Source of the DNA: Candidatus Dormiibacterota bacterium
GTDB lineage: Bacteria; Chloroflexota; Dormibacteria; Aeolococcales; Aeolococcaceae
Direction of reading: 5' to 3'
Assembly (NCBI GenBank): GCA_963709585.1
Contig: CAVPXI010000005.1
Coordinates: 32,001-96,000 of the forward strand
DNA: 64,000 nucleotides
Shown here: positions 7,719 to 61,047 of the stretch, in pieces
Numbering within the stretch: the first letter of the stretch is position 1
Layout of the letters: each line of letters starts with the position of its first letter
Notes under the pieces: model-generated
Told to the model about the DNA's origin: nothing
What the model saw: only the letters and a program-made list of their open reading frames with translations
The model's database searches: none
Position numbers and translations under genes: made by a program

Positions 7719-7801
7719 TGCGCGGACCGAGAACTCGAACTCGGACGGGTCACCCCACGGGATCCTAAGTCCCGCGCGTCTACCGATTCCGCCATCCGCG
7801 C
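7719..7801 (-). tRNA. tRNA-Leu(TAG)
   Basis: GCGCGGA/TCCGCGC acceptor stem, CGGGA-CTTAGGA-TCCCG anticodon arm, long variable arm, T-arm CCGAG/CTCGG with one extra T in the loop; no encoded CCA. Confidence 0.93.
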
Positions 7802-7915
7802 CCGGTCGGTCGAACCGGCCAGTGCCAGTGTAGCTGCGAGGAAACGGTCGCTGGACAACCCCTCTCCCGCTGCCTACTCTAGGTGGCATCCCCAACCCGA
7901 AGACGGAGGATCTGG

Positions 7916-8158
7916 ATGGAGCTGAATCACCTGACCGCAACGGCAGGCCCGCAGGAGGTCGTTGCGAAGATCGACCAGAAGGCGCTCCGGCTGTCGGCGC
8001 TGCTGCGGGAGATAGACAACCACCCCATCGAGCTGGAGACCGTGCTTCGGGACCAGCTCGATGACGTTCTGGAGATGCTGGCGTGCAGGATCGCCGCCAC
8101 CAGGACGCTGCTGCACCGATCCAGCCTCGAGTTGACGGGGGCCGGATCCCCCATATAA
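7916..8158 (+). CDS. Small hypothetical helical protein (80 aa)
   Basis: GGAGGA RBS 5 nt before ATG 7916; host-like codon usage. Confidence 0.6.
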   Translation: MELNHLTATAGPQEVVAKIDQKALRLSALLREIDNHPIELETVLRDQLDDVLEMLACRIAATRTLLHRSSLELTGAGSPI

Positions 8159-9717
8159 CGGGCGTCGTACGGCGCCTCGGGACGGCGGCTGCAGTAGAGG
8201 CTGCTGCCGCCGTCCTGATCGTTATCGCCGCGATCCTGGCGCGCTTCTGGGCGCTCCAGACCCAACCCGGTGGTCTCTACCCGGACGAGGCCGCCGAAGG
8301 CCTCAGCGCCCAGAGCCTGCTGACGATCCCGGGATACCACCCGGTGTTCTTCAACAGCGACGGCGGCCGCGAGGCCCTGTACGCGTACATGGTCGCAGCC
8401 GTCTTCAAGGTGTTCGGGTCGTCGGTGCTTACGCTGCGCGGCACCGCCGCGGCCGTCGGCGTCGCCGGGGTCATCGTCACCTACCTCGCCGTCCGCCGTT
8501 TCGGCCGGGGTCCGGCGCTGCTCGCGATGGCATGGGCCGGCGGATCACTCTGGATGATCGCCGTGTCCCGCGATGGCTTCAGGAACATCCTGACGGTGCT
8601 CGTCGGCGCAGCCGCGCTCGCGGCCTTGCTGCGCTGGGGAGACAGGCCCTCCCGATGGACCGCCGCGCTCGCCGGGATTGCGGTGGCCCTGGGGTTCTGG
8701 ACGTATCAACCGCTGAAGTTGCTGCCGTTGCTTGCGATCCTCTGGCTGGCCTGGATGCACGCCCGCGACCGTGAGCGGTTTCTCACCGTCCGCGCGACCT
8801 GGCGATGGGCGACGGTGGGGTTTCTCGTGGTCGTGGCGCCGATGGTGTACACGGCCATCACCGACTTCTCGGCGTACTTCGGTCGCGCCGCGTTCGTCTC
8901 GGTCTTCAACAGCGGATCGATGTCGACGGACAGCTACCCGGCGCACATCCTCAAGACCCTCGGCATGTTCCTCCTCACCGGGGATCCGAACCCACGTCAC
9001 GACGTGTCGGCCCTGCCACTCCTGGGGCCCGTGCTGGTGGTGCCGTTCCTGCTCGGCATCTGGCACTGCTGGCGGCGGCGAGACGACCAGGGATACGCGC
9101 TGGTGCTGCTCGGACTTCCCGTGTTCCTGATCCCTCCGCTGGTTGCCAACGAGGGCGGCGCCCCCCACTTCCTCCGATCGCTCGGTCTCGCGCCCTACGT
9201 CGCCGCCTGCATCGGCCTCGGCTGCCTCGAGGGCATCGCGATCCTCCGGCGGCTCGTCGCGAGCAACGTTCGCACCGAGCAGCGCGTATCGCAGACGGGC
9301 TGGAGCGTCTGCGCGATCGCGGCGACCGGCCTCGGCGTGGCTTCGGCGGTGACCTACTTCAACCGCCCGCTGATCGATCGCTACACGGCCTTCACCTTCG
9401 CCGACGTCGCCCTGGCAAATGCCGCCGTGGACAACTCGACCGACGGCGGACCATCCACGCTGGTCATCCTCGACGGCTACGACGCGATGGACGTGCAGTT
9501 CCTTGACGCGGGCCGCGTGCCCACCATCGTCGCGCCGATGACCAGGGTCGCGAACGTCGCCGTCTACTCGCTGATCGTCGCCCCGTCGCGAGCCGACATC
9601 GCGGCCGCCGTCGGCGCGGGCATCGCCGCAGAGGCTCAGGTGGGCGCGACCGATCCTTATGGCAACCCGGTCGTCTTCGACGTCGTACCCCAGGCGGCGG
9701 TTCCCACCCTGCCCTGA
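8083..9717 (+). CDS. GT39/ArnT-PMT family membrane glycosyltransferase (start uncertain)
   Basis: P-G-L-Y-P-DEA acidic motif after TM1, many TM helices. Confidence 0.8.
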   Translation: MQDRRHQDAAAPIQPRVDGGRIPHITGVVRRLGTAAAVEAAAAVLIVIAAILARFWALQTQPGGLYPDEAAEGLSAQSLLTIPGYHPVFFNSDGGREALYAYMVAAVFKVFGSSVLTLRGTAAAVGVAGVIVTYLAVRRFGRGPALLAMAWAGGSLWMIAVSRDGFRNILTVLVGAAALAALLRWGDRPSRWTAALAGIAVALGFWTYQPLKLLPLLAILWLAWMHARDRERFLTVRATWRWATVGFLVVVAPMVYTAITDFSAYFGRAAFVSVFNSGSMSTDSYPAHILKTLGMFLLTGDPNPRHDVSALPLLGPVLVVPFLLGIWHCWRRRDDQGYALVLLGLPVFLIPPLVANEGGAPHFLRSLGLAPYVAACIGLGCLEGIAILRRLVASNVRTEQRVSQTGWSVCAIAATGLGVASAVTYFNRPLIDRYTAFTFADVALANAAVDNSTDGGPSTLVILDGYDAMDVQFLDAGRVPTIVAPMTRVANVAVYSLIVAPSRADIAAAVGAGIAAEAQVGATDPYGNPVVFDVVPQAAVPTLP

Positions 9718-9764
9718 CCGGCAGGTCACGCACCCCGTGCGAACGCGGATCTATGGTGGGATCG

Positions 9765-11231
9765 ATGCTGCGCGGCTTTGCGGGGAAGATCTGGCTGATC
9801 ACGGGCCTCGGTCTGGTTGCACGCCTTGCGCTGCTCGGGTATCAGCCGCTCTGGCGTGATGAGGCCTTCACCGCGCTGGCGGTGCAGCGTCCACTCGGCT
9901 CGATGATCGACGTGGTCCGCAACGACAGCGCACCGCCGCTCTTCTACCTGGTGGAGCGACTCTTCGCGGTGGTGTCGACCAGCCCCGCAATGCTCCGTCT
10001 GTTCCCCGTCCTGGCCGGGACGGCGGCGATCCCGCTGCTGGCGGCGCTCGGACGTCGGGTCGCGGGCGACGCCGGGGGCCTCTGGGCGGCGGTGATCGGC
10101 GCCGTGGCGCCGGCACTGATGGTGAGCTCGCTCGACGCGCGCATGTACGTGCTCGCGACCACGCTGGTGCTCGCGTCGACGCTCTGCCTGCTGGGTGCGC
10201 TCGACCGGCCGTCGCCGCTGCGCTGGGCGCTCTACCTGGCGATGTCGATTCTCGCTGTGTACACCGTGTACTTCGCGGTCTTCGCCGTGTTCGCCCAGGT
10301 GGTCACCGTTGCGCTGCTCCACGGGCGGCAACGGCGGGGCACGATGGTGCTTGTCGGAGCACTCGCCGCCCTGACCCTTGCGACCCTGATTCCTTGGATC
10401 GTCGCCGCACGCGCGCAGCTCGACCACAGCGTCGGCGCGTTCTGGGTACCGAGATTGAGCATCCGCAGCGTCTTCGGTGGCCTCGAGCAGTTCTTCACGG
10501 GCCCACCGATCAACAACTGGGTGGCCGGGTTCGCGGCGGTGCGAGCGCTGGAGCTCGCCGGAGACGCCGCCGGCTGCCTGGTGCTGATCGCGTTGGTGGT
10601 GAACCGAAAGCGGCTCGGCGCGGCCGGCGCGCAGGCCGCAGCCTTCCTTGGAATCGCTGTCGCAATCGGCGTGGGCGTGATGCTCCTGGCCAGCTTCTAT
10701 CACCCGCTCGAGGATGGGAAATACCTGAGCGCCGCGTGGGCGCCACTGTATCCGCTGCTCGGTGCGGGGCTCGCAACCCTGCCGTGGCGGCGAGTCGCGG
10801 TCGGTGCCGCAGCGGTGACTACGGCCGTGGCCGCCAGCACCGTCCTGGTCATCACCAATCCCGAGACTCCGCTGGCGGTTGCCGCGATCGCGCGGACCTC
10901 GGCTCCGGCACCGGTGGTGACCGCGTATCCCAGCGAATACCTGCTCGTCCTGTACTACGCCGACCACGACGTCGCCGCGAGGGCGCACGCCGTGGCCACA
11001 ACGGTGCCGTGGTTCTGGGGCACGGCGGTCTATCCATCGGACGGCGCGCTGCACACCGTGGCCCAACTATTGTCCGGCGCTGCGCCGCTCTGGTACGTCT
11101 ACGAGCCGGGCGATCCGCTGCCGTCGCCGCGAGGCGGATACACGGTTTCGAATGTCCGCTGCTGGACGGGGGTCTGTGTCACCATGCTCAACCCTTCTGT
11201 TGCCGTCGCATCGCGCGGGGGATCCGGCTAG
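9765..11231 (+). CDS. GT39/PMT-like membrane glycosyltransferase
   Basis: LWRDEAFT, DSAPPLFY, LR, DARMY motifs; many TM helices. Confidence 0.82.
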   Translation: MLRGFAGKIWLITGLGLVARLALLGYQPLWRDEAFTALAVQRPLGSMIDVVRNDSAPPLFYLVERLFAVVSTSPAMLRLFPVLAGTAAIPLLAALGRRVAGDAGGLWAAVIGAVAPALMVSSLDARMYVLATTLVLASTLCLLGALDRPSPLRWALYLAMSILAVYTVYFAVFAVFAQVVTVALLHGRQRRGTMVLVGALAALTLATLIPWIVAARAQLDHSVGAFWVPRLSIRSVFGGLEQFFTGPPINNWVAGFAAVRALELAGDAAGCLVLIALVVNRKRLGAAGAQAAAFLGIAVAIGVGVMLLASFYHPLEDGKYLSAAWAPLYPLLGAGLATLPWRRVAVGAAAVTTAVAASTVLVITNPETPLAVAAIARTSAPAPVVTAYPSEYLLVLYYADHDVAARAHAVATTVPWFWGTAVYPSDGALHTVAQLLSGAAPLWYVYEPGDPLPSPRGGYTVSNVRCWTGVCVTMLNPSVAVASRGGSG

Positions 11232-11253
11232 CTCGCGGGACAAGGAGGAACAG

Positions 11254-11664
11254 GTGAAAGGCTTTCGTGACTTTCTCAACCAGGGCAACGTGGTTCAGCT
11301 CGCCGTGGCGTTCGTGGTCGGCGCTGCGTTCGGGGCCGTGGTCACCGCACTCGTGGTCGACATCATCAACCCGATCATCGCCATCCCCTTCGGCAAGCCG
11401 AACTTCGACGCGCTCGTGCTGACCGTCAACGGCAGCAAGGTCAAGTACGGCACATTCCTCACCGCGGTGATCGCGTTTGTGCTCATCGCGGCAGGCGTGT
11501 ATTTCGTCTTCGTCGTGCCATACAACAGGTTGCAGGCACGCACGCGGTCCGCGAGGCCCGGCGAGTTGAACACGCGAGCCTGCCCCGAGTGCCTGACGAT
11601 CATCCCCAAGGCGGCCCGCCGCTGTTCGGCATGCACCGCGGCGGTCGAACCTCAGGCGGCGTAA
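11254..11664 (+). CDS. mscL: Large-conductance mechanosensitive channel with C-terminal Cys4 motif
   Basis: GFRDFLNQGNVVQLAVAFVVGAAF; AGGAGG RBS before GTG; CPEC..RCSAC tail. Confidence 0.93.
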   Translation: MKGFRDFLNQGNVVQLAVAFVVGAAFGAVVTALVVDIINPIIAIPFGKPNFDALVLTVNGSKVKYGTFLTAVIAFVLIAAGVYFVFVVPYNRLQARTRSARPGELNTRACPECLTIIPKAARRCSACTAAVEPQAA

Positions 11665-11670
11665 CCGAGC

Positions 11671-12111
11671 GTGCCAGAGCTCCACACGGCTCACCTCGAC
11701 GAGCTGCCGCCGCGGACCCTGCTGGCGATCCTGGCGGTCCGTCAGGACGTCTTCGTGGTCGAACAGAGCTGCGCGTATGCCGATATCGATGCTCGCGACG
11801 CCGAGGCGCAGACCGTGCATCTGTGGATCGAGGATGACGATGGTCGCGTGGTGAGCACGCTGCGGCTATTGAGCGACGGGGACCGCGGACATCGCATCGG
11901 ACGCGTGGCGACCCTGCCGGCGTTTCGCGGACGCGGGTACTCGGGTGCGCTGCTCAGGCGAGCGATCGAGCTGTCTGGGCCGCCGATCGCGCTGAGCGCT
12001 CAGGCGTATCTGGTCGAGTGGTACGCCCGCTTCGGATTCGAGGTCTCCGGCGAACGCTGGGTCGAGGACGGCATCGAGCACGCGCCGATGCGCCTCGAGG
12101 TCAGTCGGTGA
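11671..12111 (+). CDS. ElaA-family GNAT N-acetyltransferase
   Basis: RQDVFVVEQ, IGRVAT..RGRG, SAQAYL..WYARFGF, EDGIEH. Confidence 0.9.
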   Translation: MPELHTAHLDELPPRTLLAILAVRQDVFVVEQSCAYADIDARDAEAQTVHLWIEDDDGRVVSTLRLLSDGDRGHRIGRVATLPAFRGRGYSGALLRRAIELSGPPIALSAQAYLVEWYARFGFEVSGERWVEDGIEHAPMRLEVSR

Positions 12112-14544
12112 CGATGTTGACGATGCGGTCGACGACCGCGAACACCCTGCGCGGCGCGCGCCCGTCGAGCAACTCCACGACCCGCGGGTGGGCCAGCGCC
12201 AGCGCTGTCAAGGTTTCCTCGGACGTGCCCGCGTCGACCTCGAGCTCACCCCGACGCTTGCCGTTGACGGTGATCGCCACACTCGCCCGCAGCGGAGCGG
12301 CAAGCTCGGCGTCGTAGGCCGGCCACGTGCCGCGCTGGTGGACCGAGCTGTCGTGCCCGGTGCGCTCCCAGAGCTCCTCGGTCACGAACGGCGCGAAGGG
12401 CGCGAGCAGTTTCAACAGGGTCTCGGCATCGATGCGCCGCGCGGTGCCTGCCGAGCACTCGTGGTCGAGGTCGCGCGCGAACTCCATGAGGTACGCGATC
12501 GCCGTGTTGTAGCGAAGCTCGGCGATGTCGTCCTCGACCTGCTTGATCAGGCGGTGGCGCCGCCGCTCCTTCACCTCGTCACCGGCGTCGCCGCCGGTCG
12601 CGAGCTGGGTAGCACGCCACGTCCGGTTGATGAAGCGGGTCATCCCGGCGATGCCCTTGTCGCGGAAGTCGCCACCGAGCGTGTACGGCCCGAGATACAT
12701 CATGAAGAGACGCACGGTGTCCGCGCCGTAGCGCTCGATGTACTCGTCCGGGTTGAGCACGTTGCCCCGGCTCTTCGACATCTTCGCGCCGTCCATGATG
12801 ATCATGCCGTGAGCGCGGAAGCGAGTGTACGGCTCCGCGACCGGGACGAGGCCCATGTCGTGCAGGGCACGCATCACGAAGCGCGCGTAGAGCAGGTGGC
12901 GCACCGCGTGCTCGTTGCCACCGATGTACATGTTGACGGGGAGCCAGGTGTCCGTCCGCTCCTTGTCGAAGGGAACATCGTCGAAGTCGGTGGACGGATA
13001 GCGCAGGTGGTACCACGCGGAGTTCGAGGAACGTGTCGCTGACGTCGGTCTCGCGCCGCGCCGGCTCACCGCACTTTGGGCACGGGACGTTGACCCACTC
13101 CTCCACGGTCGCAAGCGGCGAGAGACCCGTGCCCCGCGGCCGGAAATCCTCGACATCGGGAAGCAGGACCGGGAGATCCTCCTCCGGGACCGCGACCGGG
13201 CCGTCCTTGGGACAGTGGATGATCGGAATCGGCGGGCCCCAGTACCGCTGGCGTGAGATCAGCCAGTCGCGCATCTTGTACTGCACGCTGGGTTGCCCGC
13301 GACGCAGCTCGCCCAGGCGCTCGATGATGCGCCGCTTGCCATCGTCGGATGTCGCGCCGGTGAACTCGCCGCTGTTGACCATCGTGCCCGCGCCGCTGTA
13401 TGCGCCCTCGGCGACATTGCCGCCATTGATGACCTCGACGATCGGCAGCGAGTGCGCACGCGCGAAGGCCCAGTCGCGTGCGTCGTGCCCGGGGACGGCC
13501 ATGATCGCTCCGGTGCCGTACCCGCCGAGCACGTACGGAGCGGCCCAGACCGGAAGATGCGCTCCGGTCAGCGGATGGATGGCGTGCGAACCGAGCTCGA
13601 ATCCGATCGAGAAGTCGGGTTCGGCGGCGGCCGGCGGGAATTTGTTGCGCCACGCGTTGACCTCCCCCATGCGCTCCGGGGCCACGAAGTCCTCGAGCTC
13701 GGGGTGGTCGGCGCCGATCACCAGGAAGGTGGCGCCGAAGAGCGTGTCGGGACGCGTGGTGTACACGCTGATGTCCTTGCGCCGGCATCCTTCGAGATCG
13801 AACAGGATGGTTGCCCCCTCGCTCCGCCCGATCCAGTTGCGCTGCATGGTTTTCGTCGACTCCGACCAGTCGAGCGTGTCGAGCGCATTGAGCAATTCCT
13901 GCGCGTAGCGGGTGATCTTGATCCACCACTGGCGGAGATATCGTGTCTGCACCGGCGTGTGGCAGCGCTCGCAGCGACCCTGCTCCACCTGCTCGTCGGC
14001 GAGCACGGTGAGGCACGACGGACACCAGTTGACCGCCCCTTCGCGCCACTCGATGAGCCCGGCGTTGAAGAGTCGGACGAACAGCCACTGAGTTCCAGCG
14101 GTAGTACGAGGGCTCCGCGGTGTTGACCTGGTGTCCCCAGTCGAACATGGACCCGATTCGGGCGAGCTGGTTCTCCCGGAAGTTGGCGACCGCGCGGCGC
14201 ATAACGACGGCAGGATGCTCGCCGATCTTCATCGCGTAGTTCTCGGAGTGGATGCCGAAGGCGTCGAACCCCATCGGCTCGAACACGGTGTCACCCATCA
14301 GACGCCGCCAGCGGCCGTAGATGTCACCGCCCGCGAACGGGATGATGTGACCGACGTGCAGCCCCTCGGCGGAGGGATACGGGAACATCATCAGGTTGTA
14401 GAAGGGGTGCGCGGGCTCGTCGAGCTCGGTGCGGTAGTCGCCGCGCTCGTCCCAGATCCGCCGCCAGCGTGCCTCGACGGTGGTGTGGTCGTACACGTCG
14501 AGGTGGCCGGGACCGGGCCCGATCGGGGCGGTGACGGTGTCCAT
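12101..14544 (-). CDS. leuS: Leucine--tRNA ligase, with two apparent +1 frameshifts (~14092 and ~13022)
   Basis: MFPYPS..LHVGH, NWIGRSEG, YTTRPDTLFG, DWLISRQRYWG, KMSKSRGN spread over three frames; removing one base at each GAACTC restores YYRWTQWLF and DTFLDSAWY. Confidence 0.95.
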
Positions 14545-16990: not shown

Positions 16991-17052
16991 CTCAGTGGTA
17001 GAGCAGCGGTTTCGTAAACCGCTGGCCGGGAGTTCGAATCTCCCCGTCGGCT
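16981..17052 (+). tRNA. tRNA-Thr(CGT)
   Basis: GCCGACG/CGTCGGC acceptor, AGCTCAGTGGTAGAGC D-arm, GCGGT-TTCGTAA-ACCGC anticodon arm, GGGAG-TTCGAAT-CTCCC T-arm. Confidence 0.96.
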
Positions 17053-17110
17053 CACGTATTTTTGGCGTTTGTGACAGGCCTTCCGTTCGGATCCGCCTGA
17101 AACTCGCGGT

Positions 17111-17983: not shown

Positions 17984-18070
17984 CGCGAGGGACTCTACGA
18001 CTGCCCGGTCCAACTCGTACTTCGTGGGACCCCGTTCGACGGTCTTCGCACCAGAGGTACTCTCGACCGG

Positions 18071-19024: not shown

Positions 19025-19026
19025 CG

Positions 19027-20205: not shown

Positions 20206-21389
20206 CAGATGGGTGCACGTGCTTGGTGGTGGCGAATGGCAGGTGCCGACCATCAAGCTCGCCAAAGCCTCTGGCTACCGGGTGTTGTGCACCGACATCT
20301 ACTCCGAGCGTCCAGGGTACGCCTACGCGGACGAGCACGTGGTCGTCGACATCGCTGACAACGTGGCAACCCTGGAGATAGCCCAGCGGGCGCGTATCGA
20401 TGGGATCATCTGTGACACGACCGACGTCGGTGTCCCCACTATGGCCTACGTCGCGGAGCAGATGGGCCTCCCTGGAATCGGATATGAGACGGCACTCAAC
20501 TTCACCAACAAGTTCCTCATGCGCGAAATCACCAGCGCCGCGGGGGTACCCAACCCGCCGTTCCGGCTGGTGGGCGACCGGGGAGATGTGGTCGCAGCAG
20601 CCGCCGACATCGGGTTCCCTCTGGTCGTCAAACCCGTGGCCAGCCAGTCGAGTTCGCGGTGTCCACGTCGTGCGCACCGCAGATGCCCTGGAGTCCGCGT
20701 TCGAGGAGGCGTCACACTACGCTCGCAATGGTCAGGTCATTGCAGAAGGCTTCATTGACGGGACCGAGGTTACCGTCGAGGGCTATTGCCTCGAGGGTGA
20801 GCCCCTCATCTCCGGCATCTCGGACAAGGATCACTTTGCGCACAGGCCGGAGGTGGCCAACCGCATCACCTATCCCGCCGATCTGCCTCCGAGCGTCATG
20901 GCCCGGATCAGGGAGGTGAACACCGCAGTCGTCCAGTCACTCGGGCTTCGCACCGGGGTGACGCACGCCGAATACATGGTGGCAGGGGGCGAGGTATATC
21001 TGGTTGAGATCGCCGCGCGCGGCGGTGGCAGCCGGATCCACACGCACATCGCTCCCTACCTCGCCGGCGTCTGCATTCCCCAGCTGTATCTTGACTTCGT
21101 CATGGGCGGGATGCCCACGGCTCGACCTGACGGTGTGGCGCGCGCCGCCAACCTGGCTTTCTTCGCGTTTCCTGCCGGGACGGTGACCGGGATCGATGGC
21201 GTTGCGGAAGCCGCGACGCTGCCAGGGGTCGAAGAACTGCACCTGGAATTCGCGGTCGGGGACAGGCTCGAGCCTCCGGATGACGACCGTTCTCGGCCCG
21301 GCTATGTGGTTGTCTTCGGCGCGAACCGTGCCGAGGTTCTCAGCATCACCGCGGACGTTTTCGAACGGGTCCGGGTGACCATCGCATGA
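20195..21389 (+). CDS. ATP-grasp domain protein (apparent +1 frameshift at ~20653)
   Basis: LGGGEWQ, NKFLMRE, FPLVVKP..SQSSRGV after repair, EGFIDG.EVTVE, HAEY, EIAARGGG. Confidence 0.85.
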
Positions 21390-22171: not shown

Positions 22172-22206
22172 TTCACGGACACGAATCGCCGAGTCACGAG
22201 GGCGCA

Positions 22207-22890: not shown

Positions 22891-22914
22891 TCGATGACGC
22901 GCTGGAGCAGAGAA

Positions 22915-37673: not shown

Positions 37674-38723
37674 CCCTTCACGCGCGAAGTCCGCACCCAG
37701 CTTGGAACGCTCGGTCTCGATTGCGATCTCTCGGTCGACGCCGGGGTCACGGTCGCGGTGCTCGGACCAAACGGTGCCGGCAAGACGACCCTGCTCCGGG
37801 TGATCGCGGGGCTGGTGCCGGTCGACGAAGGACGGGTCGAGTGTGACGGAGCCGTGTTCGAGGACACCGCCACCGGCGCGTGGCTGACGCCTGAAGCGCG
37901 CCGGGTCGGATTCGTGTTCCAGGACCATGGACTGTTCCCGCACATCAGCGTGCTCGACAATGTCGCCTTCGGTCTGCGTGCCCGCGGCGTCGATCGGAAG
38001 ACGGCAAACGCGAAGGCGCACGAGTGGCTCGCGCGGGTGGAGCTCGCGACATACGCGACGAGCCGCCCGTCGGTGCTGAGCGGCGGCCAGTCGCAGCGGG
38101 CGGCGCTGGCGCGCGTCCTGGTCACCGAACCCCAGGCACTGCTGCTCGACGAACCGCTTGCCGCCGTCGACGCCTCGGGACGCCTCGAGCTTCGCCGCGC
38201 GCTTCGCGAGCACCTCTCCTCATTCGCCGGTGTGCGTCTGATCGTGACCCACGATCCGCTCGAGGCGGCGTCGCTCGCCGAGCGCGTCGTCGTCCTCGAG
38301 GATGGTCGCGTCACCCAGGAGGGAACGTTCGGCGAGGTGTCGGCGCGTCCGCAATCGGCATGGATCGCCCGGATGGCAGGGCTGAACCTGCTCCGCGGCG
38401 CAGTGTCGGACGGCACGATCCTCCTCGATGACGGTTCCCGTCTCACCGTGGCCATCGACATCCGGGGCCCCGCGCTGGCAACCATCCACCCTCGTGCCGT
38501 GGCCCTGTACCGCCAGGCCCCGGAGGGCAGCCCGCGCAACGTCCTGCGCTGCAAGGTCGCCGGGGTCGACCCGGAAGGTGACCGCTGGCGGATCCGCCTC
38601 GACGGCCCTTTCCCTCTCGTCGCTGAAGTGACTCCGGGGGCGGCCGCGGATCTGCGCCTCGCTGAGGGAGGCGAGGTGTTCGCGGTGGTCAAGGCAACCG
38701 AGATCGACGTCTATTCCCTGTGA
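37670..38723 (+). CDS. modC: Molybdate ABC transporter ATPase with TOBE domain (apparent +1 frameshift at ~37688)
   Basis: GPNGAGKT, LFPH, LSGGQ, LLDEP, SPRN, VKATE; the coupled GTG 37670 comes in frame when one A of GAAGTC is removed. Confidence 0.9.
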
Positions 38724-45035: not shown

Positions 45036-45085
45036 CTCACCTACCTCCGGGATCGCGAACTGGACCGACCGAGGCTAGCAGAGCG

Positions 45086-49523: not shown

Positions 49524-50398
49524 GCCGCTGCTCCCTGCGCACGATTGATCGCGGTGTGCAGGCCGCGCTGCACGAAGACCCGTGCAACATCGCGCTTGTA
49601 CTCCGCACTGCCCCGGATATCTGCTTTTGGTTCGGCAGCCTCACCGGCAAGGCGGGAGGCTTCCGCGATCACCTCGTCAGACGGCGCCTGACCCACAAGC
49701 GCTGCCTCCGCCGCAGTCGCCTTGATGCTGTGCGCACCGACGGCGCACAGCCCGATACCGGCGGTCGCGATTCGACCCTCGGCGTCGAGCACGACGTGGA
49801 CGGCGGTGGCGACGCTGGCGAAATCGCCGACCTTGCGCTCGAGCTTCAGGTATGTCCCTCCCGACCGTCCCGCGACGACCGGGATCCGGATCTCGGTCAT
49901 CACCTCGTCGGCGTGCAGGCCGGTCGTGAACGGCCCCTCGAAGAAGCCGGCAGCCGGGAGAACGCGCTCACCGCTTGCCGCCCTGACCACGAATTCGGCG
50001 CCGACCGCGAGCATCACCGCGCCCCAGTCGCCGGCGGGATCGGCGTGGCAGATCGAGCCGCCGACTGTCCCCATGTTGCGGATGAGCGGATCGGAGATGA
50101 GCGGCGCCGCGTCCAGGAGCACGTCGAGCGTGCCGCGCAGGTCGGTGGCGCTCTCGACATCGCGATGACGGGTGCGCGCTCCGATACGCACGTGCCCGTT
50201 TTCCCGGCCAATTCCCTCGAGTTCATCGACTCTTCCGATATCGATGACGATGACTGGAGCCGCAAATCGCAGTTTCAATAATGGGATCAGGCTCTGCCCT
50301 CCGGCAAGCACCTTCGCGTCATCGCCGTGCTGGCTCAACAGGCTGAGCACTTCGTCCAGCGCCCCCGGCGCAATGTAGTCGAACGCGGCAGGGAACAT
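49520..50398 (-). CDS. coxM: CO dehydrogenase medium (FAD) subunit
   Basis: [28 protein letters not shown]; GGAGG RBS. Confidence 0.95.
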
Positions 50399-50592
50399 CC
50401 AGAACCTCCGGGATTTGAACCCAATTACTCTCTCGATGTGTCCGCCAACGGACAGGGCACAGCGTACGCCTCGAAGGCAAGCCATCGAAATAGCCATGTG
50501 CTGCACCGCCGACAGCGGGAATACCCGCCCCGCAGCCGCGACTATGATGGTTGCCGGACTCCCGACGAGGGTGGAGGATGAGAACCCAAACG

Positions 50593-51825: not shown

Positions 51826-52855
51826 CGACGGTGACTGCGTTGCCCGACGTGACCATCGGCACGGACCGGTTCAGCCGATCACTCCGCGACGTGCGTATCT
51901 CGGTCACCGATCGCTGCAACTTCCGCTGCCCGTACTGCATGCCCAAGGCGCGCTTCGGGCCTGGATATCGATTCCTGCCTCGCGCCGAGGCGCTCGAGGC
52001 GCGCGAGATCGTGCGGCTCGCAGGGGTGTTCGCGTCGCTCGGCGTGACCAAGATTCGCTTGACAGGCGGCGAACCGCTGCTTCGCACCGATCTCGCCGAG
52101 ATCGTCGAGGGCATTGCCGGCCTGGGCGTGGCGGATATCGCGCTGACCACCAACGGCGCGCTGCTCCGGCGCTGGGCGGTCCGCCTTCGCGAAGCCGGCC
52201 TGCATCGAGTCACGGTGAGCCTCGAACTCGCTCGACCCGGCCGTCTTCACCGCAATGAGTGATTCCCGAATCGAGGTGAGCGAGGTGCTCGACGGGATCG
52301 CCGCCGCACGCGACGCCGGCCTTGCGCCCGTCAAGCTCAACTGCGTGGTGCAGCGCGGGGTGAATGAGGACGGTCTGCTCGATCTCGTCGCCTTCGCCCG
52401 CCGCGAGGGCTTGGGCCTCCGCTGCATCGAATACATGGATGTGGGCGAGACCAACGGTTGGCGGATGGCGGACGTCGTGAGCGGCGAAGAGATCCTCGCG
52501 CGGGTGCGACGGGTTTATCCGCTCCTCGAGGAGGCGCCCGATCCGACCGCGGTCGCCCGGACGTATCGCTTCGCTGATGGCAACGGAGACCTCGGGGTGA
52601 TCACGTCGGTGAGCCGCCCGTTCTGCGGCGACTGCACGCGCGCTCGAACTCGGCGTCGACGGCAAGCTCTACACGTGCCTGTTCGCGACCGCCGGCGTCG
52701 ACCTGCGCGAACCCATGCGTTCGGGTGCCGACGACGACGCGCTCCGTCGCATCGTCGCCGAACGCTGGAAGCGGCGCGACGATCGTTACTCCGAGTTGCG
52801 CGGGCTCGGCATCGCCGAGGGCGAACGCATCGAGATGTCGTACATCGGCGGTTGA
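51822..52855 (+). CDS. moaA: GTP 3',8-cyclase MoaA (two apparent +1 frameshifts, ~52226 and ~52648)
   Basis: CNFRCPYC, TGGEP, VSLDSLD (repaired), FCGDC.RAR..DGKLYTCLF, C-terminal MSYIGG. Confidence 0.93.
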
Positions 52856-52858
52856 CCG

Positions 52859-53551: not shown

Positions 53552-54042
53552 TGGTGCAACGCCTCTCCCACGTTGACGAGGCAGGTCGCGCGCGCATGGT
53601 CGACATCAGCGACAAGGCGGTGACCCAGCGCAGCGCGACCGCGCGGGGTCGGGTTCGATGCAGTTCGGAGGCGGTGCAGCGGATCGCCGCCAACGCGATC
53701 GCGAAAGGCAGCGTGCTCGACACCGCACGCATCGCGGGCATCATGGGTGCCAAGCGCACCTCGGACCTGATCCCCCTCTGCCATCCGCTTGCGCTCCGCC
53801 ACATCGACGTCGACCTGCGCGTCGACACATCCGACACTCCCGGCGTCCTGATTGAGGCGACCGCGCGTGTCGAGGGCGCGACCGGAGTCGAGATGGAGGC
53901 CCTGACCGCCGTTGCCATCGCGGCGCTCACGGTCATCGACATGATCAAGGCGGTGGACCACTGGGCATCGATCACCGACGTCACCCTGGTGCACAAGGAG
54001 GGCGGGCGAAGCGGGTCGCTCGACCGGCCCGAAAGGGGTTAG
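53551..54042 (+). CDS. moaC: Cyclic pyranopterin monophosphate synthase
   Basis: LSHVD..GRARMVD, LIPLCHP, TGVEMEAL, KEGGRSG. Confidence 0.95.
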   Translation: MVQRLSHVDEAGRARMVDISDKAVTQRSATARGRVRCSSEAVQRIAANAIAKGSVLDTARIAGIMGAKRTSDLIPLCHPLALRHIDVDLRVDTSDTPGVLIEATARVEGATGVEMEALTAVAIAALTVIDMIKAVDHWASITDVTLVHKEGGRSGSLDRPERG

Positions 54043-54593
54043 TTCGCGGGGCTTGCCTGAGCGGCGTGTCGCGTCTCGCCCGAGATGAGCGCGAGCGCGT
54101 GCGGCAGCGCCGGCCAGACCGCGTCGAGGCATTCGGCCACGGCGGTGGGACTCCCGGGCAGGGACAGGACCAGGCAGTTCCTGGTGACACCGACGACCTG
54201 GCGTGAGAGCATCGCGTGCGGCGTTGACTTGAGGCCCTGGTGGCGCATCACCTCGGCCATCCCCGGAACCTCATAGTCGAACAATGGGAGCAGCGCCTGC
54301 GGCGTCACGTCGCGAGGACCGAGACCAGTGCCACCGGTGAGAATGAGAATGTCCGACTTGCCGGCGCACTGCTCGACGGCGGCTCGGATCGCGTCGATGT
54401 CGTCGGTCACACTCTCGCGCCCGACGATATCCGCGGGGAGGAGCGCGAATCGCGCGACGATAACATCGCCGCTGCGATCGTCGGCATCGACGCCGCGACG
54501 GCTGTCGCTGACGGTGATCTCCGCCCCACGCCAGCGCTTGTCCTCGGTCAGATCACGCATCGCGAAGGATCCGCTCGTGTCCGGCGTAGACAT
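54039..54593 (-). CDS. mog: MogA/MoaB molybdopterin adenylyltransferase
   Basis: TVSD, DRSG, TGGTGLGPRDVTP, LSR, LPGSP. Confidence 0.9.
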   Translation of the reverse strand: MSTPDTSGSFAMRDLTEDKRWRGAEITVSDSRRGVDADDRSGDVIVARFALLPADIVGRESVTDDIDAIRAAVEQCAGKSDILILTGGTGLGPRDVTPQALLPLFDYEVPGMAEVMRHQGLKSTPHAMLSRQVVGVTRNCLVLSLPGSPTAVAECLDAVWPALPHALALISGETRHAAQASPAN

Positions 54594-55374
54594 TCATATG
54601 CTCACCGCGAAGAAAGCCTATCAAGGTCATCCCGGAGTCAGCCGCGAGCTCCACGGCGAGGCTCGACGGCGCCGAAACGGCCGCCAGTAAGGGGATCCCG
54701 GCCATCAACGACTTCTGTGTCAACTCAAAGCTGGCGCGCCCGGACGCGAGGATGATGTGCGAGCGGAGCGGAAGCCGTCCCTGCGTGGCCGCCCATCCGA
54801 TGACCTTGTCGAACGCATTGTGGCGACCGACATCTTCACGCAGGCAGAGCAGCCCACCGGCACGGTCGAACAGTGCCGCGGCATGCAATCCCCCGGTGCG
54901 CGAGAACTGCCGCTGCGCCGAACGCTGTATTGCGGGCAGGCCAAGCAGGAGTTCGGGCGAAACGCGCAGCGGGTCGCCGGCCACGTCGTACGCCGACTTG
55001 GTGCGCACAGCCTCGATGCTCGCCTTGCCGCACATGCCGCACGATGACGTCATGTAGAACGCGCGCGGCGTCATATCCCGGGAAGCCGCGGCGTCCGACA
55101 GCGTGACCTCGACGACGTTCAGCTCACCGGTGGCGGCCGCCGCGTCGGGACACATCCGCATCCCCGCGATCTCGCCCGCTCCACCGGCGATGCCCTCGGT
55201 GATCAGGAAGCCGGCAACCAGGTCGAAGTCGTCGCCGGGGGTGCGCATCGTCACCGAGAGCGAGACGCCCCCGACCCGGATCTCGAGCGGCTCCTCGGTG
55301 CTGATTTCGTCGCTCCGCCAGGTCACGCCTCCGCCGGCTGCAACCTCCATCACACGCCGGTGGCGCACGGTCAT
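54553..55374 (-). CDS. fdhD: Formate dehydrogenase accessory sulfurtransferase FdhD
   Basis: EEPLEI, MRTPG, SSCGMCG, TGGLHAA, REDVGRHNA.DK, SGRASFE, SAPSSLA. Confidence 0.94.
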   Translation of the reverse strand: MTVRHRRVMEVAAGGGVTWRSDEISTEEPLEIRVGGVSLSVTMRTPGDDFDLVAGFLITEGIAGGAGEIAGMRMCPDAAAATGELNVVEVTLSDAAASRDMTPRAFYMTSSCGMCGKASIEAVRTKSAYDVAGDPLRVSPELLLGLPAIQRSAQRQFSRTGGLHAAALFDRAGGLLCLREDVGRHNAFDKVIGWAATQGRLPLRSHIILASGRASFELTQKSLMAGIPLLAAVSAPSSLAVELAADSGMTLIGFLRGEHMNVYAGHERILRDA

Positions 55375-55450
55375 GGCGACCACGATAGCGACCGCGTGTC
55401 GGGATGGCGGGTCCCGCGCCCCACGGCCATCCGCCAAGATCACCCGCGAC

Positions 55451-55741
55451 ATGACCAACGCACCCAATACAAACGATCTGCTCGCCAGGCTGGCGTCGGC
55501 ATTGAGCGCGGCTCGAGGCTCGGCCGGTGCCGTGCAACCGGTCGATCCCGCCGGACGCGCGCGGCTGCTCCGCATCGCCCGCGACGTCGCGCATGCGAGC
55601 GAGCGGCAGAACGCCCCGCTCGCAGCCTACCTGACCGGCCGGTTCGTCCAGGACGCCGTCCGCTCGGGCGTCTCCGAGGCCGACGCTCTCCAGCAGGCGG
55701 AGTTGGTGGTCCGTACCCTCATCGGGGATGGTGCCGGCTGA
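55451..55741 (+). CDS. DUF6457-like small protein
   Basis: LLRIARDVAH..ER..AP..AYL.G pattern typical of the MobA-associated domain. Confidence 0.7.
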   Translation: MTNAPNTNDLLARLASALSAARGSAGAVQPVDPAGRARLLRIARDVAHASERQNAPLAAYLTGRFVQDAVRSGVSEADALQQAELVVRTLIGDGAG

Positions 55742-56357
55742 CCTCGGCGAGGTCCTGCGGAGTGTTGACATTGCGGGTGAAGCGGTCGGAGATGCCCGCG
55801 TCGCGCCACTCGCTCTCGGTGAGGCGCACCGCCTCCGACTTCTCGATCAGACGCCGCAGCGATCGATCCGACCCGGCGAGCGCGGCCTCCGCCGCGGCGA
55901 GCATGGACGTGGCGTAGACGGCATGGAGCGGCTCGATGCCGCGAGCCGTCTCGCACACCGCCACATCACCGTCGCCGATCCTCGCCGCCAGCATCCGGAT
56001 GAGACGCGGATCGATCCATGGGAGGTCGACGGCCACGACCGCGAGCAGCCGGTGCGGTGATGCGCGCAACGCCGCGACGAGCCCGCCGAGCGGCCCGGCT
56101 CCGGGCACAGGGTCAGCGACTGAGAGCCGCCCTGCGACGCGGCCGGGTGCATCCCCAGCGGCGATGAGCACGGGATCGCACACCGCATCGAGACGGGCGA
56201 GCGCGCGCTCCAGCAGCGTCGTTCCTTCGAAGGTGATGGTCGCCTTGTCGACGCCCATTCGCGCGCTGCGACCGCCGCACAGCACCACCCCGGCAAGCCC
56301 GGGGATCGCGAGGACACCGTCGCGCCGGCGCGCCTGGGGTGATTCCACTGGGCGCAA
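55719..56357 (-). CDS. mobA: Molybdenum cofactor guanylyltransferase
   Basis: LCGGRSARMGVDKA, GPLGG, VDLP, EPLHAVY, NVNTP. Confidence 0.9.
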   Translation of the reverse strand: MRPVESPQARRRDGVLAIPGLAGVVLCGGRSARMGVDKATITFEGTTLLERALARLDAVCDPVLIAAGDAPGRVAGRLSVADPVPGAGPLGGLVAALRASPHRLLAVVAVDLPWIDPRLIRMLAARIGDGDVAVCETARGIEPLHAVYATSMLAAAEAALAGSDRSLRRLIEKSEAVRLTESEWRDAGISDRFTRNVNTPQDLAEVSRHHPR

Positions 56358-56395
56358 CCTTACGCAACGCCACCGTCCTGAATCTCACCGGGGGG

Positions 56396-56430
56396 AGGGG
56401 CGATATCTGCGCAGTCGCAGGATCGCCTTC
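56396..56430 (-). terminator. Putative stem-loop downstream of the pilin gene
   Basis: GGCGAT.CTGCG-CAGT-CGCAG.ATCGCC inverted repeat immediately after the pilin stop; no U-tract. Confidence 0.35.
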
Positions 56431-56433
56431 GCC

Positions 56434-56646
56434 CTACGCGTTCAGGCCGTTGCTCACGTTCGAGAAGACGTTGTTCGTCTGGTGTCCGACGACGCCGACC
56501 ACGACGATCACGAAGATTGCGATCAGGACCAGGACGAGCGCGTACTCGACCAATCCCTGACCACGTTCGTCATCGCGCCGCCGGCTGGTGGGAACGGTCA
56601 TCGACCTCACCAGGGCTACCAACGCTGGGAAAAATGCCGGGATCAT
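56434..56646 (-). CDS. Flp family type IVb pilin
   Basis: ERG^QGLVEYALVLVLIAI prepilin/Flp motif; start ATG 56646 or 56601. Confidence 0.88.
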   Translation of the reverse strand: MIPAFFPALVALVRSMTVPTSRRRDDERGQGLVEYALVLVLIAIFVIVVVGVVGHQTNNVFSNVSNGLNA

Positions 56647-56754
56647 GTCGAAAGCATCATTCACGCGTGGCGGCCAGACGTTGTGATTGGGTGACGAGCT
56701 TGTTTCGGTGCTGGCCAACGAAATCGCGCTCGTTACGCCTGCGTTACCCCGAGA

Positions 56755-58335
56755 TCAGCGTGCGAGTTCGGCGCTCTTGATTGCCGCCCCGTAACCGTCG
56801 GGCAGCGGCCGCGGCGGCTGGGGACCCACGTACAGCGCGGAGGGACGGATCAGCCTGTTGTTGGCGGCCTGTTCGGCGATCGCCGCGGTCCAGCCGACGG
56901 TGCGGCTCGAGGCAAACGTGGGGGTGAACATGTCGGGCGGGATGCCGACGCTGTTCATCACCACCCCCGCGTAGAACTCCACATTCGTGTAGAGGCGCCG
57001 ACCGGGTTTCAACTCGTTGAGCACGCGCAGCGCGGTCCGCTCCACCTGGACGGCGAACTCCGCCTGCGGACCGCCCAGCTCGATCGCCACCTCGCGCAGG
57101 AGCGTCGAGCGCGGGTCGTCGGTCTTGTAGACGCGATGGCCGAAGCCCATCAGGCGCTCACCGGACGAGATCTCGTGGCGGAGGTACTCCTCGGCTTTGT
57201 CCGGGGTGCCGATCGCATCGAGCATGGCAAGCGCCCTCGATGGCGCACCCCCGTGGAGCGGGCCGGCCAGAGCACCGATCGCCCCGGTGAGCGCCGACCC
57301 GATGTCGGACCCCGTCGACGTGATCACGCGCGCCGTGAAGGTCGACGAGTTGAACCCGTGGTCCATCGTCAGGATCAGGTACTGCTCCAGCGCGCGGATC
57401 GCCCGGTCGTGGGGCCGTTCGCCGGTGAGCATCTGGATGTAGGCGCCCACGTAGCCGAGGTCCGGGTCCGGCTCAACGGGTTCGAGGCCGAGATGGTGGC
57501 GGTGCAGCCGCATCAGCAGCACCGGGACGATCGCCGCCATCTTCAGGCATTCCCGGCGGACCTCGTCCGCGGGGATGTCGAGCGTCGGCTTCTGCTCGAG
57601 GGCCGCCCCCGCGAGTGACACGGCGGAGCGAAGCGCCATCAGCGGCGTATACCCGGGCAGCGCCGCGATCGCGGGGAGCAGGTCCGCGACCGTGTCGGGA
57701 ACCGAGCGCGCCTCAACCGCGAGCTTGGTGAACTCCTTCAACTGGGCGTCGTCGGGCAGCTCACCTTCGACGAGCAGATGCCATACCTGCTCGAACGAAC
57801 ACCGGCGTGCCAGCTCGGTGGCGTTGTAGCCCCGGTAGTGGAAGAACCCCTCCTCGCCGCGAACGTCGCCGACCGAGGTCTCGGCTACAGCCACGCCCTC
57901 GAGGCCCCGGGGCGCGAGCCCGGGAGGGGCAGAGCCCGCCGGCTGCACCTCTTCGATATGCGCCACCCGGACCACATGGCGGATCGACAGGATTCCCGCG
58001 ACCCGGTCGCCGTCCATCACCGGCAGGTGGCGGAAGCGGCGCTCTCGGAAGAGCTCGAGGCCCTTCTCCACGGTGTCGGTCACCGACACCGTGATCGGGT
58101 CCTTGGTCATGACCTCTTCTACCTTGGCGGTGCCCGGGTCGACGCCGTGCCCGACCGAGCGGAGCAGGTCCCGCTCACTCAGCATCCCGCGCAACCGGTC
58201 CTGCTCGTCCAGGACGGCGGCGGCACCGACATTCGCGCGGTCAAGGATCACCGCAGCCTCCGCCAGGGTGATCGTGGTCGGCACGACCACCGCCGGCTTG
58301 TGCATCACGTCGGCGACGGTCAGCGAGGCGGTCAC
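56755..58335 (-). CDS. Tandem-CBS domain plus citrate/2-methylcitrate synthase fusion
   Basis: ~125-aa CBS pair (GMLSERD, FRHLPV, GILSIR), then GLEGV, DHGFNSSTF, GPLHGGA, GFGHRVY, DPR, NVEFY. Confidence 0.9.
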   Translation of the reverse strand: MTASLTVADVMHKPAVVVPTTITLAEAAVILDRANVGAAAVLDEQDRLRGMLSERDLLRSVGHGVDPGTAKVEEVMTKDPITVSVTDTVEKGLELFRERRFRHLPVMDGDRVAGILSIRHVVRVAHIEEVQPAGSAPPGLAPRGLEGVAVAETSVGDVRGEEGFFHYRGYNATELARRCSFEQVWHLLVEGELPDDAQLKEFTKLAVEARSVPDTVADLLPAIAALPGYTPLMALRSAVSLAGAALEQKPTLDIPADEVRRECLKMAAIVPVLLMRLHRHHLGLEPVEPDPDLGYVGAYIQMLTGERPHDRAIRALEQYLILTMDHGFNSSTFTARVITSTGSDIGSALTGAIGALAGPLHGGAPSRALAMLDAIGTPDKAEEYLRHEISSGERLMGFGHRVYKTDDPRSTLLREVAIELGGPQAEFAVQVERTALRVLNELKPGRRLYTNVEFYAGVVMNSVGIPPDMFTPTFASSRTVGWTAAIAEQAANNRLIRPSALYVGPQPPRPLPDGYGAAIKSAELAR

Positions 58336-58432
58336 GCTGTCAGTCTAGCGCTGCGCGCCAGGGACCTCGGCGCCGTACGCGTCTCCGCGGCCCTGCGCGG
58401 CGAGGCGCCGGAGCGTCACGATCTGCGACCAC

Positions 58433-59894
58433 ATGACAGGCGCTCGACCCACTGGCGACATGGATCCGGTGGCGTACCGGCACGCAGCGCACCGCGTCGC
58501 CGATTGGACCGCCGACTACCTCCGGGACGTCGAGCGCTTCCCGGTGCTGAGTCCCACCCAGCCGGGAGCGGTGCGGCGTGAACTGCCCGTGGCGCCGCCC
58601 CCGAACGGCGAGCCGATCGAGACGGTGCTCGCCGACGTCGAGGAGCTGCTGATTCCCGCAACCACGCACTGGCAGTCCCCGGGGTTCATGGCGTACTTCG
58701 CGTCGAGCGGATCGGGGCCCGGGATCCTCGGCGAGACGCTTGCCGCGGCGTTCAACGTCAACGCGATGCTCTGGCGGACCGCCCCGGCAGCGACCGAGCT
58801 CGAGCAGGTGACCCTCGACTGGCTTCGCCAGATGGTGGGGCTGCCGCAACCCCGCTTCGGGGTTATCAACGACACCGCCTCGACGAGCACGCTCTACGCG
58901 CTGGCAGCAGCGCGCGAGGCCCAGACCGACCTGCGCATCCGCGAACTTGGCATGGCGGGACGTCCCGACATGCCGGCGCTGCGCTACTACGCATCCGCCG
59001 AGGCGCACTCATCGGTCGAGAAAGCCGGCATCGTGCTGGGCACCGGCACAGAAGGGCTGCGTCGGATCCCGGTCGACGAGCGATTCCGAATGGACCCCGT
59101 AGCGCTGCGCCAGGCGATTCACGAGGACATCGCCGCCGGGATCCGCCCGTTCGCGGTTGTCGCCACCGCGGGCACCACATCAACCACCAGTGTCGATCCG
59201 ATCCCGGCGATCGCGTCGCTCTGCGAGCAGCATGGATTGTGGCTCCATGTCGACGCGGCCTATGGCGGTGCGGCCGCGATCGCTCCCGAGCTGCGCTGGG
59301 TGCTCGACGGTGCCGACCGCGCCGAACTCGATCGTCGTCAACCCGCACAAGTGGCTCTTCACACCGATCGACTGCAGCGTCCTCTGGACGCGGCGTCCCG
59401 ACGTCCTGCGCGAAGCCTTCTCGCTCGTGCCGGAATACCTCACCACCACCGATGGGTCGGAGCAGAACGCCCCCAACCTCATGGATTACGGAACGTCACT
59501 CGGCCGCCGGATGCGGGCGCTCAAGCTGTGGATGGTCATCCGCCATTTCGGGACCGACGGGCTCGCTCAACGCATTCGCGAGCACTGCGAGTACGCGTCA
59601 ATGCTCGCGCGCTGGATCGAGGGTGAGCCCGACTTCGAGCTGCTCGCGCCCGCGCCACTGAGCGTCGTCTGCCTGCGCGCACATCCTCCCGGCCTCGACA
59701 ACCCGGGAACACTCGACGCGCTCAACCAGCGCATCGTCGAGCGCATCAACATCGGTGGACGGTTCTTCGTGAGCCACACAAAGCTGCGTGGCGAGTACGC
59801 AATCCGCGTCGCATTCGGCGGCGTGCGACAGGAGGAGCGTCACGCACGCGGAGTGATCGCGGCGTTGCGCGGCGCCATGGACGATGTAGGATGA
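58433..59894 (+). CDS. Group II PLP decarboxylase (aromatic-L-amino-acid decarboxylase-like; apparent +1 frameshift at ~59326)
   Basis: THWQSP.FMAYF, PAATELE, AHSSVEKA, GTT, HVDAAY, ADSIVVNPHKW (repaired), LGRR.RALKLW. Confidence 0.9.
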
Positions 59895-59900
59895 GACGCG

Positions 59901-61047
59901 ATGTTCCGCGCCCTTGGGGCGAGACTCACCCTCGACCATAAGGGGGTGACCGGAGCTGCGCTTTTCGAAGCGGCAGCCCAGCGAATCTGGCTCTGGGCGA
60001 CGAGTGGTCTTAAGACTGCAGCGGATCATGTGAGCGAGGGCGAGCTCCAGGAAGGCGATCTGCACGTGACCGTGCTGCGCTGCGACAGCGGCAATCGATC
60101 GCTGTGCCGTGTCGCCGTCCAGCGGCCGGACGAGTGGGACCGGTCGATACTCTGGATCACCACTGTCGACGCCGTGCGCACCGGTGACACGGTGGCGGTC
60201 GGTGTCTCGGTCGAGCAGGACATGCGTTATATTCGCGTGCCACCGTCACCGCTTGTTCCACCGCTGGTTGCCTTGCTCCACGATTTCGTCAATGACGGAG
60301 CAACCGCTGGATCGCAACGGCTTCGCTCGACGCCGGAGGCGGTGCTGGGCTCCGAGCAGATCGACTCCTTCGTGCACTCGTGCCTCCTCGACCCGGGACG
60401 ACGCCTCCCGGTGGTGGTCTTCAGTGCCAAGAAAGAGGAGGACGGCGTGTATCCAACCGAGGCCGGCAATCCGTCGCTGACGGCCCGCGAACTCTGCGGG
60501 CTCGCGCACGTCTTCGTCATGCCACGAGTTCGAGGACTCACATCGCCTGACCAAGCGACTCGGGATGCTCTCGGTGTACGACGGTGCGGTGCGCATCTAC
60601 TGGCCGCGGTTCCGGTTGAGCGACCCGCCTCCGCGTCACCCGTTGCATCTCCGTCAACGGCTCAACACCGCGAGTGGGCCGGCCATCATTCGTCGGGTGG
60701 TCGAGGCGGGCGCACGTTCGTATCGCCCACCCGACGGCACCGCGACCCTGCTTGCGACGCGCTGGCGGGATCGAGAGCAGGAGCGCATCGCGGCGATCAT
60801 CGATGATCCCGACCTGGCCCGGCAGGCATCGCTGTTGCGCGACGAGCTGCTGCGTGTCATCGATGCCAAGGTTGCGCTCGAGCACGAGATGGAGACGCTG
60901 CGTCATCAGCTGGTCCGCTCCACGGAGCGCACCGACGAACTCGATACGCAGCTCACCGGTGTCCGGGCGGCGCCTGCGACGTCGACCGAGCTCACCGGCA
61001 AACCGGCGGCGCCGAGCCACGATGCGGTCACACCTGACGGCGGCTGA
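59901..61047 (+). CDS. Conserved hypothetical protein with C-terminal coiled coil (apparent +1 frameshift at ~60529)
   Basis: Two ORFs join when one T of GAGTTC is removed; RRLPVVV, LCGLAHV, SVYDGAVRIYWP..D...HPL. Confidence 0.7.

Follow-up and report, generated by a model that had tools for sequence, protein, structure and literature searches.

Motif-bound errors caused by base modification are a well-described class of artefact in long-read assemblies. With default base-calling models, ~70% of consensus errors fell in Dcm motifs and a taxon-trained model removed them (PMC6591954), R10.4.1 assemblies keep modification-induced, strand-specific errors with a C-to-T / G-to-A bias (PMC11610603), and on one platform native DNA is reported to exceed amplified DNA in both insertion and substitution rates (10.64898/2026.01.14.699587). 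Here we describe a 64,000-nucleotide (nt) stretch of a Candidatus Dormiibacterota genome (G000:C5:32001-96000, hereafter the window), in which nine single-base insertions, all at words derived from GACTC/GAGTC, interrupt leuS, moaA, modC, a tRNA-Leu gene and others. The window resembles the nanopore errors at Dcm sites (CCWGG) and in R10.4.1 data in that the errors follow one short word, persist after consensus, are taxon-specific and are absent from independent reads. It differs from what the papers searched describe in that the dominant error is a frame-breaking +1 insertion and in that the word is GACTC/GAGTC. What is new is the motif, here of insertion type; the class of artefact is known, and the mechanism is not a new one.

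GAGTC is itself the word of type IIS systems such as MlyI, PleI and N.BstNBI. The genome carries two DNA methyltransferase genes close together on contig C7 (hereafter the C7 pair), which recall these systems in that an asymmetric word would need one methylase per strand; unlike them, the pair has no nuclease beside or between its members and is fixed across the genus, in contrast to typical mobile restriction systems. Compared with CcrM and M.HinfI, whose word is GANTC, the C7 enzymes are likewise of the beta class (PF01555), orphan and lineage-conserved, with a DPP(Y/F)-type motif, and the errors here touch each of the two adenines in the palindrome-like GA-N-TC frame. Unlike CcrM, however, there are two separate genes, one of only 264 residues, and no error signal is seen at words derived from GAATC/GATTC; specificity in the CcrM family is described as drifting among GANTC, GAWTC and GADTC (PMC8919816).

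Nine lesions at one word

A first-pass annotation of the window had listed nine hexamers, each returning to GACTC or GAGTC on deletion of one base, together with intact copies of the same word nearby. All nine were present (four GAACTC, four GAGTTC and one GAAGTC), as were the intact words that it had named, GAGTC at 52207 and GACTC at 60535; the former (52207..52211) lies 13 nt upstream of a corrupted site and is one of 75 intact GACTC/GAGTC words in the window. GAGTTC is GAACTC on the opposite strand, and the A is doubled on the GAGTC strand in one case only, that of modC (37686). The genome as a whole amounts to 3.52 Mb in 24 contigs, with a G+C content of 67% and an estimated completeness of 88.8%.

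On the minus strand, GAACTC at 7731..7736 falls in the T-loop of a tRNA-Leu gene (7718-7801, called by ARAGORN), where the extra base gives a loop of 8 nt (TTCGAGTT) against 7, three relatives having GACTC and an 83-nt gene. Also on the minus strand, leuS, which is single-copy in the genome, is split by GAGTTC at 13020..13025 (score ~21 in the frame-repair scan described below) and again by GAGTTC at 14090..14095, with its LeuRS Pfam match in three pieces; four of four relatives are without either base, and the two repairs together give a frame of 834 codons. The remaining lesions lie on the plus strand. GAGTTC at 20650..20655 (score 28.1) splits the match of an ATP-grasp / L-amino-acid ligase gene, and GAAGTC at 37686..37691 sits near the start of modC, which encodes an ABC ATPase with a TOBE domain and whose ABC_tran match begins only at profile position 16. 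Two GAACTC words, at 52224..52229 and 52646..52651, interrupt moaA, with the Radical_SAM match ending at profile position 112 (first lesion) and Mob_synth_C at 79 (second lesion). A further GAACTC at 59324..59329 lies in a gene for a pyridoxal-phosphate-dependent decarboxylase, whose Pfam match is split exactly at profile position 258, and GAGTTC at 60526..60531 interrupts a hypothetical gene (59901-61047) that reads as a 383-codon frame once repaired. At the modC, moaA, decarboxylase and hypothetical-gene sites alike, three of three relatives are without the extra base.

The annotation had also held that repair recovers conserved motifs, and in-silico deletion at the eight coding sites (20650 included, the tRNA left out) did restore FLDSAWY and YYRWTQW (first and second leuS lesions), SQSSRGV (ATP-grasp gene) and ADSIVVNPHK (decarboxylase), while VSLDSLD could be read from the displayed frames.

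The window was then set against syntenic regions from four congeners (genomes G003, G008, G012 and G016), with which it is collinear except from 17053 to ~26000, a part without counterpart in them. An insertion was taken as private to the window if it was 1 nt extra relative to at least three relatives, among the three or four covering each place. Eleven such insertions were found, and eight of them correspond to annotated sites (placed in this alignment at 7732, 13023, 14091, 37688, 52225, 52647, 59324 and 60527), so that 8 of 11 fell within the 85 such hexamers of the window, or 510 of its 64000 nt (P = 2.6e-15). A comparison of leuS with seven same-genus genomes (84-88% identity) likewise gave only two window-private 1-nt insertions within the gene, at 13023 and 14093. 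For the ninth site, at 20650 within the part that the relatives lack, support comes from the codon score, the split Pfam match and the repaired frame of 410 codons.

The statement that every +1 insertion lies at the motif thus holds for the gene-breaking insertions and fails for three intergenic ones. These three, at 3721, 7881 and 14638, are off the motif and supported by 3-4 relatives, and may be real or an error of another kind.

The same words recur among the congeners' own private 1-nt insertions (clear cases picked by eye), with 7 of 36 in G008, 3 of 39 in G003 and 2 of 29 in G012, all three being few-contig assemblies, against 0 of 5 in G016, where 17 kb were covered. At the tRNA-Leu site, G003, G012 and G016 have GACTC, the window has GAACTC and G008 has GACTTC; one conserved position of the T-loop thus carries an extra base in two assemblies, and not the same one in each.

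Independent sequence data came from public runs, 20 of which hold part of window 52000-61000 according to one search, with two soil runs from a single study containing 85% and 77% of its words. The comparison used four runs (X1 to X4) that come from three studies and whose contigs were aligned on window 41500-61000, X1 and X2 being near-identical to the window and X3 and X4 representing related strains. The indel table for X1 and X2 contains nothing but single omitted bases at motif sites (52225, 59325 and 60529 in both, 52647 in X2), and two X2 contigs (records 15 and 16) carry just that one gap, with otherwise 0 differences from the window. The base is also left out at three of four sites in X3, which has no cover at 60529, and at all four in X4, where the gap in the second moaA lesion is placed at 52648. 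Although X1 shows no deletion at 52647, these independent data give the extra base no support at the four tested sites (52225, 52647/8, 59325 and 60529).

Insertions are not the only errors at this word. Among the best-supported 40 of 1034 rows of substitution differences between window and runs, at least two fall on the motif, both missed by the annotation: the window reads GAGTT where X1, X2 and X4 read GAGTC, at 50219..50223 (T>C at 50223) and at 55700..55704 (T>C at 55704). Such GAGTC-to-GAGTT substitutions are of the C-to-T / G-to-A type reported in the R10.4.1 study (PMC11610603). Four other single-base differences, at 43950, 47167, 48829 and 53321, set the window apart from all four runs and lie off GACTC/GAGTC; these might reflect variation between strains or further consensus errors.

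Overall, the observation made in the first-pass annotation is confirmed, and we hold it as next to certain that the nine lesions are assembly consensus errors and not pseudogenes, the extra base being absent from the contigs of other runs and from all relatives, leuS being present as a single copy, and G008 having a different extra base at the tRNA site.

Word specificity across the genome

To extend the count to the whole genome, codon log-odds were trained on 367 long open frames, and at every position one base was removed or added so as to join two 60-codon arms of good coding signal (frame-repair scan). Six-letter words were then ranked by the share of their occurrences that hold a position where a one-base deletion restores codon-usage continuity. 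A version of the scan based on third-position G+C (GC3) alone had no discrimination, with hundreds of thousands of positions passing the lower cut-offs equally for both repair types, and was replaced by the codon log-odds. Of the eight coding lesions already known, six reach 15 or more in the final scan. One further GAACTC in the window, at 22923 (score 16.3), was considered as a tenth lesion and rejected as a gene-boundary false positive, as the DegT-family gene at whose 3' end it lies is intact there.

GAACTC/GAGTTC came first among all 6-mers, with 134 of 2519 occurrences (5.3%) holding a repairable position, compared with an overall share of 0.75% (z = 26.6, P = 2.7e-67). CGAACT and AACTCG, which follow in the ranking, both overlap GAACTC, and GAAGTC/GACTTC formed a weaker second class (39 of 1993, P = 1.4e-7). 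Seen from the side of the events, 587 were of deletion type, of which 130 held GAACTC (~22 expected) and 36 held GAAGTC (~17 expected). The GAACTC matches were even across strands (66 and 68) and showed a marked flank preference for C before and G after, with CGAACTCG at 77 of 649 (11.9%) versus 0-5% for other flanks. Genome-wide, ~3% of true GACTC/GAGTC sites are detectably corrupted (4327 remain intact), and in the window 9 of 84 are.

The signal is also narrow. Eight tested one-base variants of GAACTC gave 0-1.9%, and doubling of G or C (GGACTC, GACCTC, GACTCC) gave 0.7-0.8%, that is, background, so that only the two adenine positions are affected. The converse ranking, in which a base is added, consisted mainly of ATGA/GTGA words of gene junctions. 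None of its words derives from GACTC, and a matching deletion-type motif is therefore lacking. The motif-wise count of frameshifts that the annotation had called for thus showed words derived from GACTC/GAGTC to be enriched and those derived from GAATC/GATTC to be at background, and we take it as shown that the error follows the word GACTC/GAGTC, doubling only its two adenine positions.

A probable base modification and the candidate methyltransferases

How might one word attract such errors? A long-read base caller or polisher would sometimes call the adenine twice at GACTC/GAGTC, most often turning GACTC into GAACTC and less often GAGTC into GAAGTC, and would sometimes read the neighbouring G as A, giving GAGTC to GAGTT. 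The organism, for its part, would N6-methylate adenine (N6-methyladenine, m6A) on both strands of GASTC, or of the wider GANTC, producing a signal that the base-calling model has not learned, and the error would win the consensus at a minority of sites, for the most part where the context is C-GACTC-G. The doubling affects no base other than the adenines that a both-strand GASTC enzyme would modify, in keeping with the idea put forward in the first-pass annotation. We consider it likely that base modification at GACTC/GAGTC is what causes the errors.

A search of the genome for methyltransferases, also suggested in the annotation, found four DNA methyltransferases: two PF01555 proteins (C7), a type I HsdM (C10) and a C5 methylase (C4). 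No Dam-type match, and no Eco57I-type match above cut-off, was found in the genome. The two PF01555 genes lie ~2 kb apart in a housekeeping neighbourhood (C7 583009-586979, or L026 5009-8979) and score 144 and 95.5 bits against a gathering cut-off of 26.7. Their catalytic motifs are VDPPF (P0001) and TDPAY (P0002), which we counted as instances of (D/S)PP(Y/F). The D of D-P-P/A-F/Y denotes the adenine type, N4-cytosine enzymes usually having SPP(Y/F), and the pair can thus be put forward as two beta-class, genus-conserved candidates, predicted to be of N6-adenine type. Among solved structures, the nearest to the pair are M.RsrI, CcrM, M.MboIIA and unnamed methyltransferases. Between the two genes lie one for an acyl-CoA dehydrogenase and, on the other strand, one for a small-molecule methyltransferase.

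Among the 41 genus members searched, 40 have an orthologue of the 264-residue C7 enzyme, most of them with the paralogue at a distance of 2.3-2.8 kb. An orthologue also occurs in two of four other genera of the family; among 116 other genomes sampled from the phylum there was one weak case (35% identity). By contrast, neither the C5 methylase nor HsdM has a match in G003, which shows the errors, and the two reach only 30-37% identity in two of the other three relatives searched. The conserved pair is therefore the only DNA methylase content found in common among the error-showing assemblies. As sources of the errors, the C5 methylase (C4) was rejected because it has no match in G003, and the type I system (C10) because its motif would be bipartite and it is not common to the relatives. 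In four few-contig genomes of the genus (G006, G008, G046 and G047), the 264-residue gene is itself matched as two separate pieces.

Taken together, the conserved N6-adenine-type genes, the other methylases not being shared and the published work on motif-bound errors make methylation the most likely cause, and the best candidate enzymes would be the two C7 beta-class methyltransferases (DPPF and DPAY). That the modification is m6A, and that one or both C7 genes make it, we regard as about an even bet. The interpretation given in the annotation is thus supported as to the artefact, and plausible but unproven as to m6A. More tentatively still, and with some doubt, one may picture an orphan, chromosomal pair of beta-class adenine methyltransferases, fixed across the genus and part of the family, that methylates both strands of GASTC: a CcrM-like core system that would have arisen outside the Alphaproteobacteria with a narrowed specificity, and that the error pattern would read out.

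Several points weigh against methylation by the C7 pair, or against parts of the case for it. Among 27 named same-lineage loci around the methylase gene, 2 of 12 private 1-nt insertions lay at the motif in 12 long-read loci and 0 of 2 in 14 short-read loci, which are few events, with the long-read class taken from record titles. The sequencing platform is on record neither for X1 to X4 nor for the assembly of the window, and the runs that hold the window best may be its sample of origin; moreover, X1 shows no deletion at 52647, at a depth of 17.4. GAAATC and GAATTC are at background (6 of 896, or 0.7%, and 5 of 439, or 1.1%, respectively). The errors do not, then, point to a GANTC enzyme, though sites free of errors may still be methylated, and GASTC and GANTC are not told apart by them. 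The C7 enzymes score 73.3 and 76.9 bits on the CcrM equivalog model NF050803, far below the cut-off of 830, so the label "CcrM-like" used in the annotation is not established. The alternative label, "MlyI/PleI-like", fares no better, with no restriction enzyme adjoining the pair: a search confined to this neighbourhood found no nuclease domain beside or between the two genes (neighbours are dihydropteroate-synthase-like, acyl-CoA dehydrogenase, S-adenosylmethionine (SAM) methyltransferase and MMPL genes). No same-family genome without PF01555 methylases was available as a negative control, as all five searched have them. Finally, the literature searched, supplements lying outside that search, holds no report of +1 insertions at GASTC, the errors described being mainly substitutions. 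Searches on GAGTC, m6A and methylomes returned mainly papers on m6A in RNA, together with marine metaepigenome work on CcrM variants, and nothing on this lineage, and no methylome for the phylum was found in print.

Of the other explanations, the one that fares best is a bias of base caller or polisher at GACTC in certain flanks, in any organism and unrelated to modification. The strong dependence on flanks (CGAACTCG at 11.9% against 0-5%) would fit such a bias, as would the fact that a minority of sites is hit; the error-showing relatives were presumably made with similar technology, and the genomes searched include no methylase-free control. A general error at GACTC, however, should show in benchmark genomes, of which no report was found in the literature, and a large share of published motif-bound consensus errors has been traced to modifications missing from training data (PMC6591954, PMC11610603). 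A bias of this kind would also have to double bases at just the two adenines that a both-strand GASTC/GANTC adenine methylase would modify, and we judge it unlikely.

Alternatively, the motif could be modified but not by m6A, with N4- or C5-methylated cytosines or another modification, the doubled A being a mere matter of where the error is placed. The inserted base need not be the modified base, the beta class of PF01555 includes N4-cytosine methylases, which appear among the structure matches (8s9n, 1boo), and the genome does hold a C5 methylase. Yet both candidates carry D-P-P/A-F/Y, of the adenine type, the C5 methylase is without a match in the error-showing G003, and the doubling is restricted to two adenine positions, which together make this account improbable. 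That the extra bases are real, whether as marks of pseudogenes, of a hotspot for site-specific slippage, or of editing or programmed recoding at GAACTC, has in its favour their presence in the deposited sequence and the base retained by X1 at 52647, but is extremely improbable given otherwise identical contigs of other runs without the base, two hits in a single-copy leuS, a hit in a tRNA T-loop that ribosomal frameshifting cannot rescue, ~130 sites genome-wide at one word, and different errors at the same tRNA site in different assemblies.

Consequences for annotation and neighbouring features

The finding is of practical value for annotation. A single five-letter word accounts for ~130 detectable frame breaks in a 3.5-Mb genome, with leuS, the tRNA, moaA, modC and a type I restriction subunit among the genes affected, and at least three same-genus assemblies have the same kind of error. 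Left uncorrected, motif errors lead to false pseudogenes, split proteins and lower completeness scores, and most of the errors could be removed by comparing each GAACTC/GAGTTC and GAAGTC/GACTTC with short reads or with relatives. For this uncultured lineage, methylation of GASTC on the adenines of both strands is thereby predicted, with two candidate enzymes. If the more tentative picture of a genus-wide methyltransferase pair is true, the frameshift words of existing long-read catalogues could reveal the methylation motifs of uncultured organisms without raw signal.

Same-genus genomes with 2-6 contigs tend to have a lower estimated completeness (69-91) than many-contig ones, a trend that would fit frameshifts breaking marker genes in long-read assemblies. 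Nothing stated here depends on three unpublished genomes of this comparison (G021, G026 and G030).

Within the window, the part missing from all four syntenic relatives (17053-26000, ~9 kb) begins right after a tRNA-Thr gene (16981-17053). It encodes a GT2 glycosyltransferase, two aminotransferases (class I/II and DegT family), the L-amino-acid-ligase/ATP-grasp protein, an amidohydrolase, two SAM methyltransferases and a DUF4234 protein, and resembles a strain-specific island, flanked by a tRNA gene, with a role in modifying sugars or peptides.

At 28856-28861, a GAGTC-type word, the window has one nucleotide fewer than two relatives, reading GAACTC where G012 has GAGACTC and G008 has GAAACTC. 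An ABC-ATPase gene adjoins one for a fumarylacetoacetate hydrolase at this point; a protein-to-DNA search hinted at a broken 563-codon frame, but high-GC DNA aligns well in any frame. Either a deletion-type error at the motif or a genuine indel may account for the difference.

On contig C10, a 34-kb contig of lower G+C, a defence cluster (4805-12843, L027) consists of an Mrr-type nuclease gene followed by those for HsdM (831 residues), HsdS and HsdR. The hsdR gene is split into two frames at GAGTTC (C10:10762), with the highest frame-repair score seen (43-44), and is probably broken by the same artefact.

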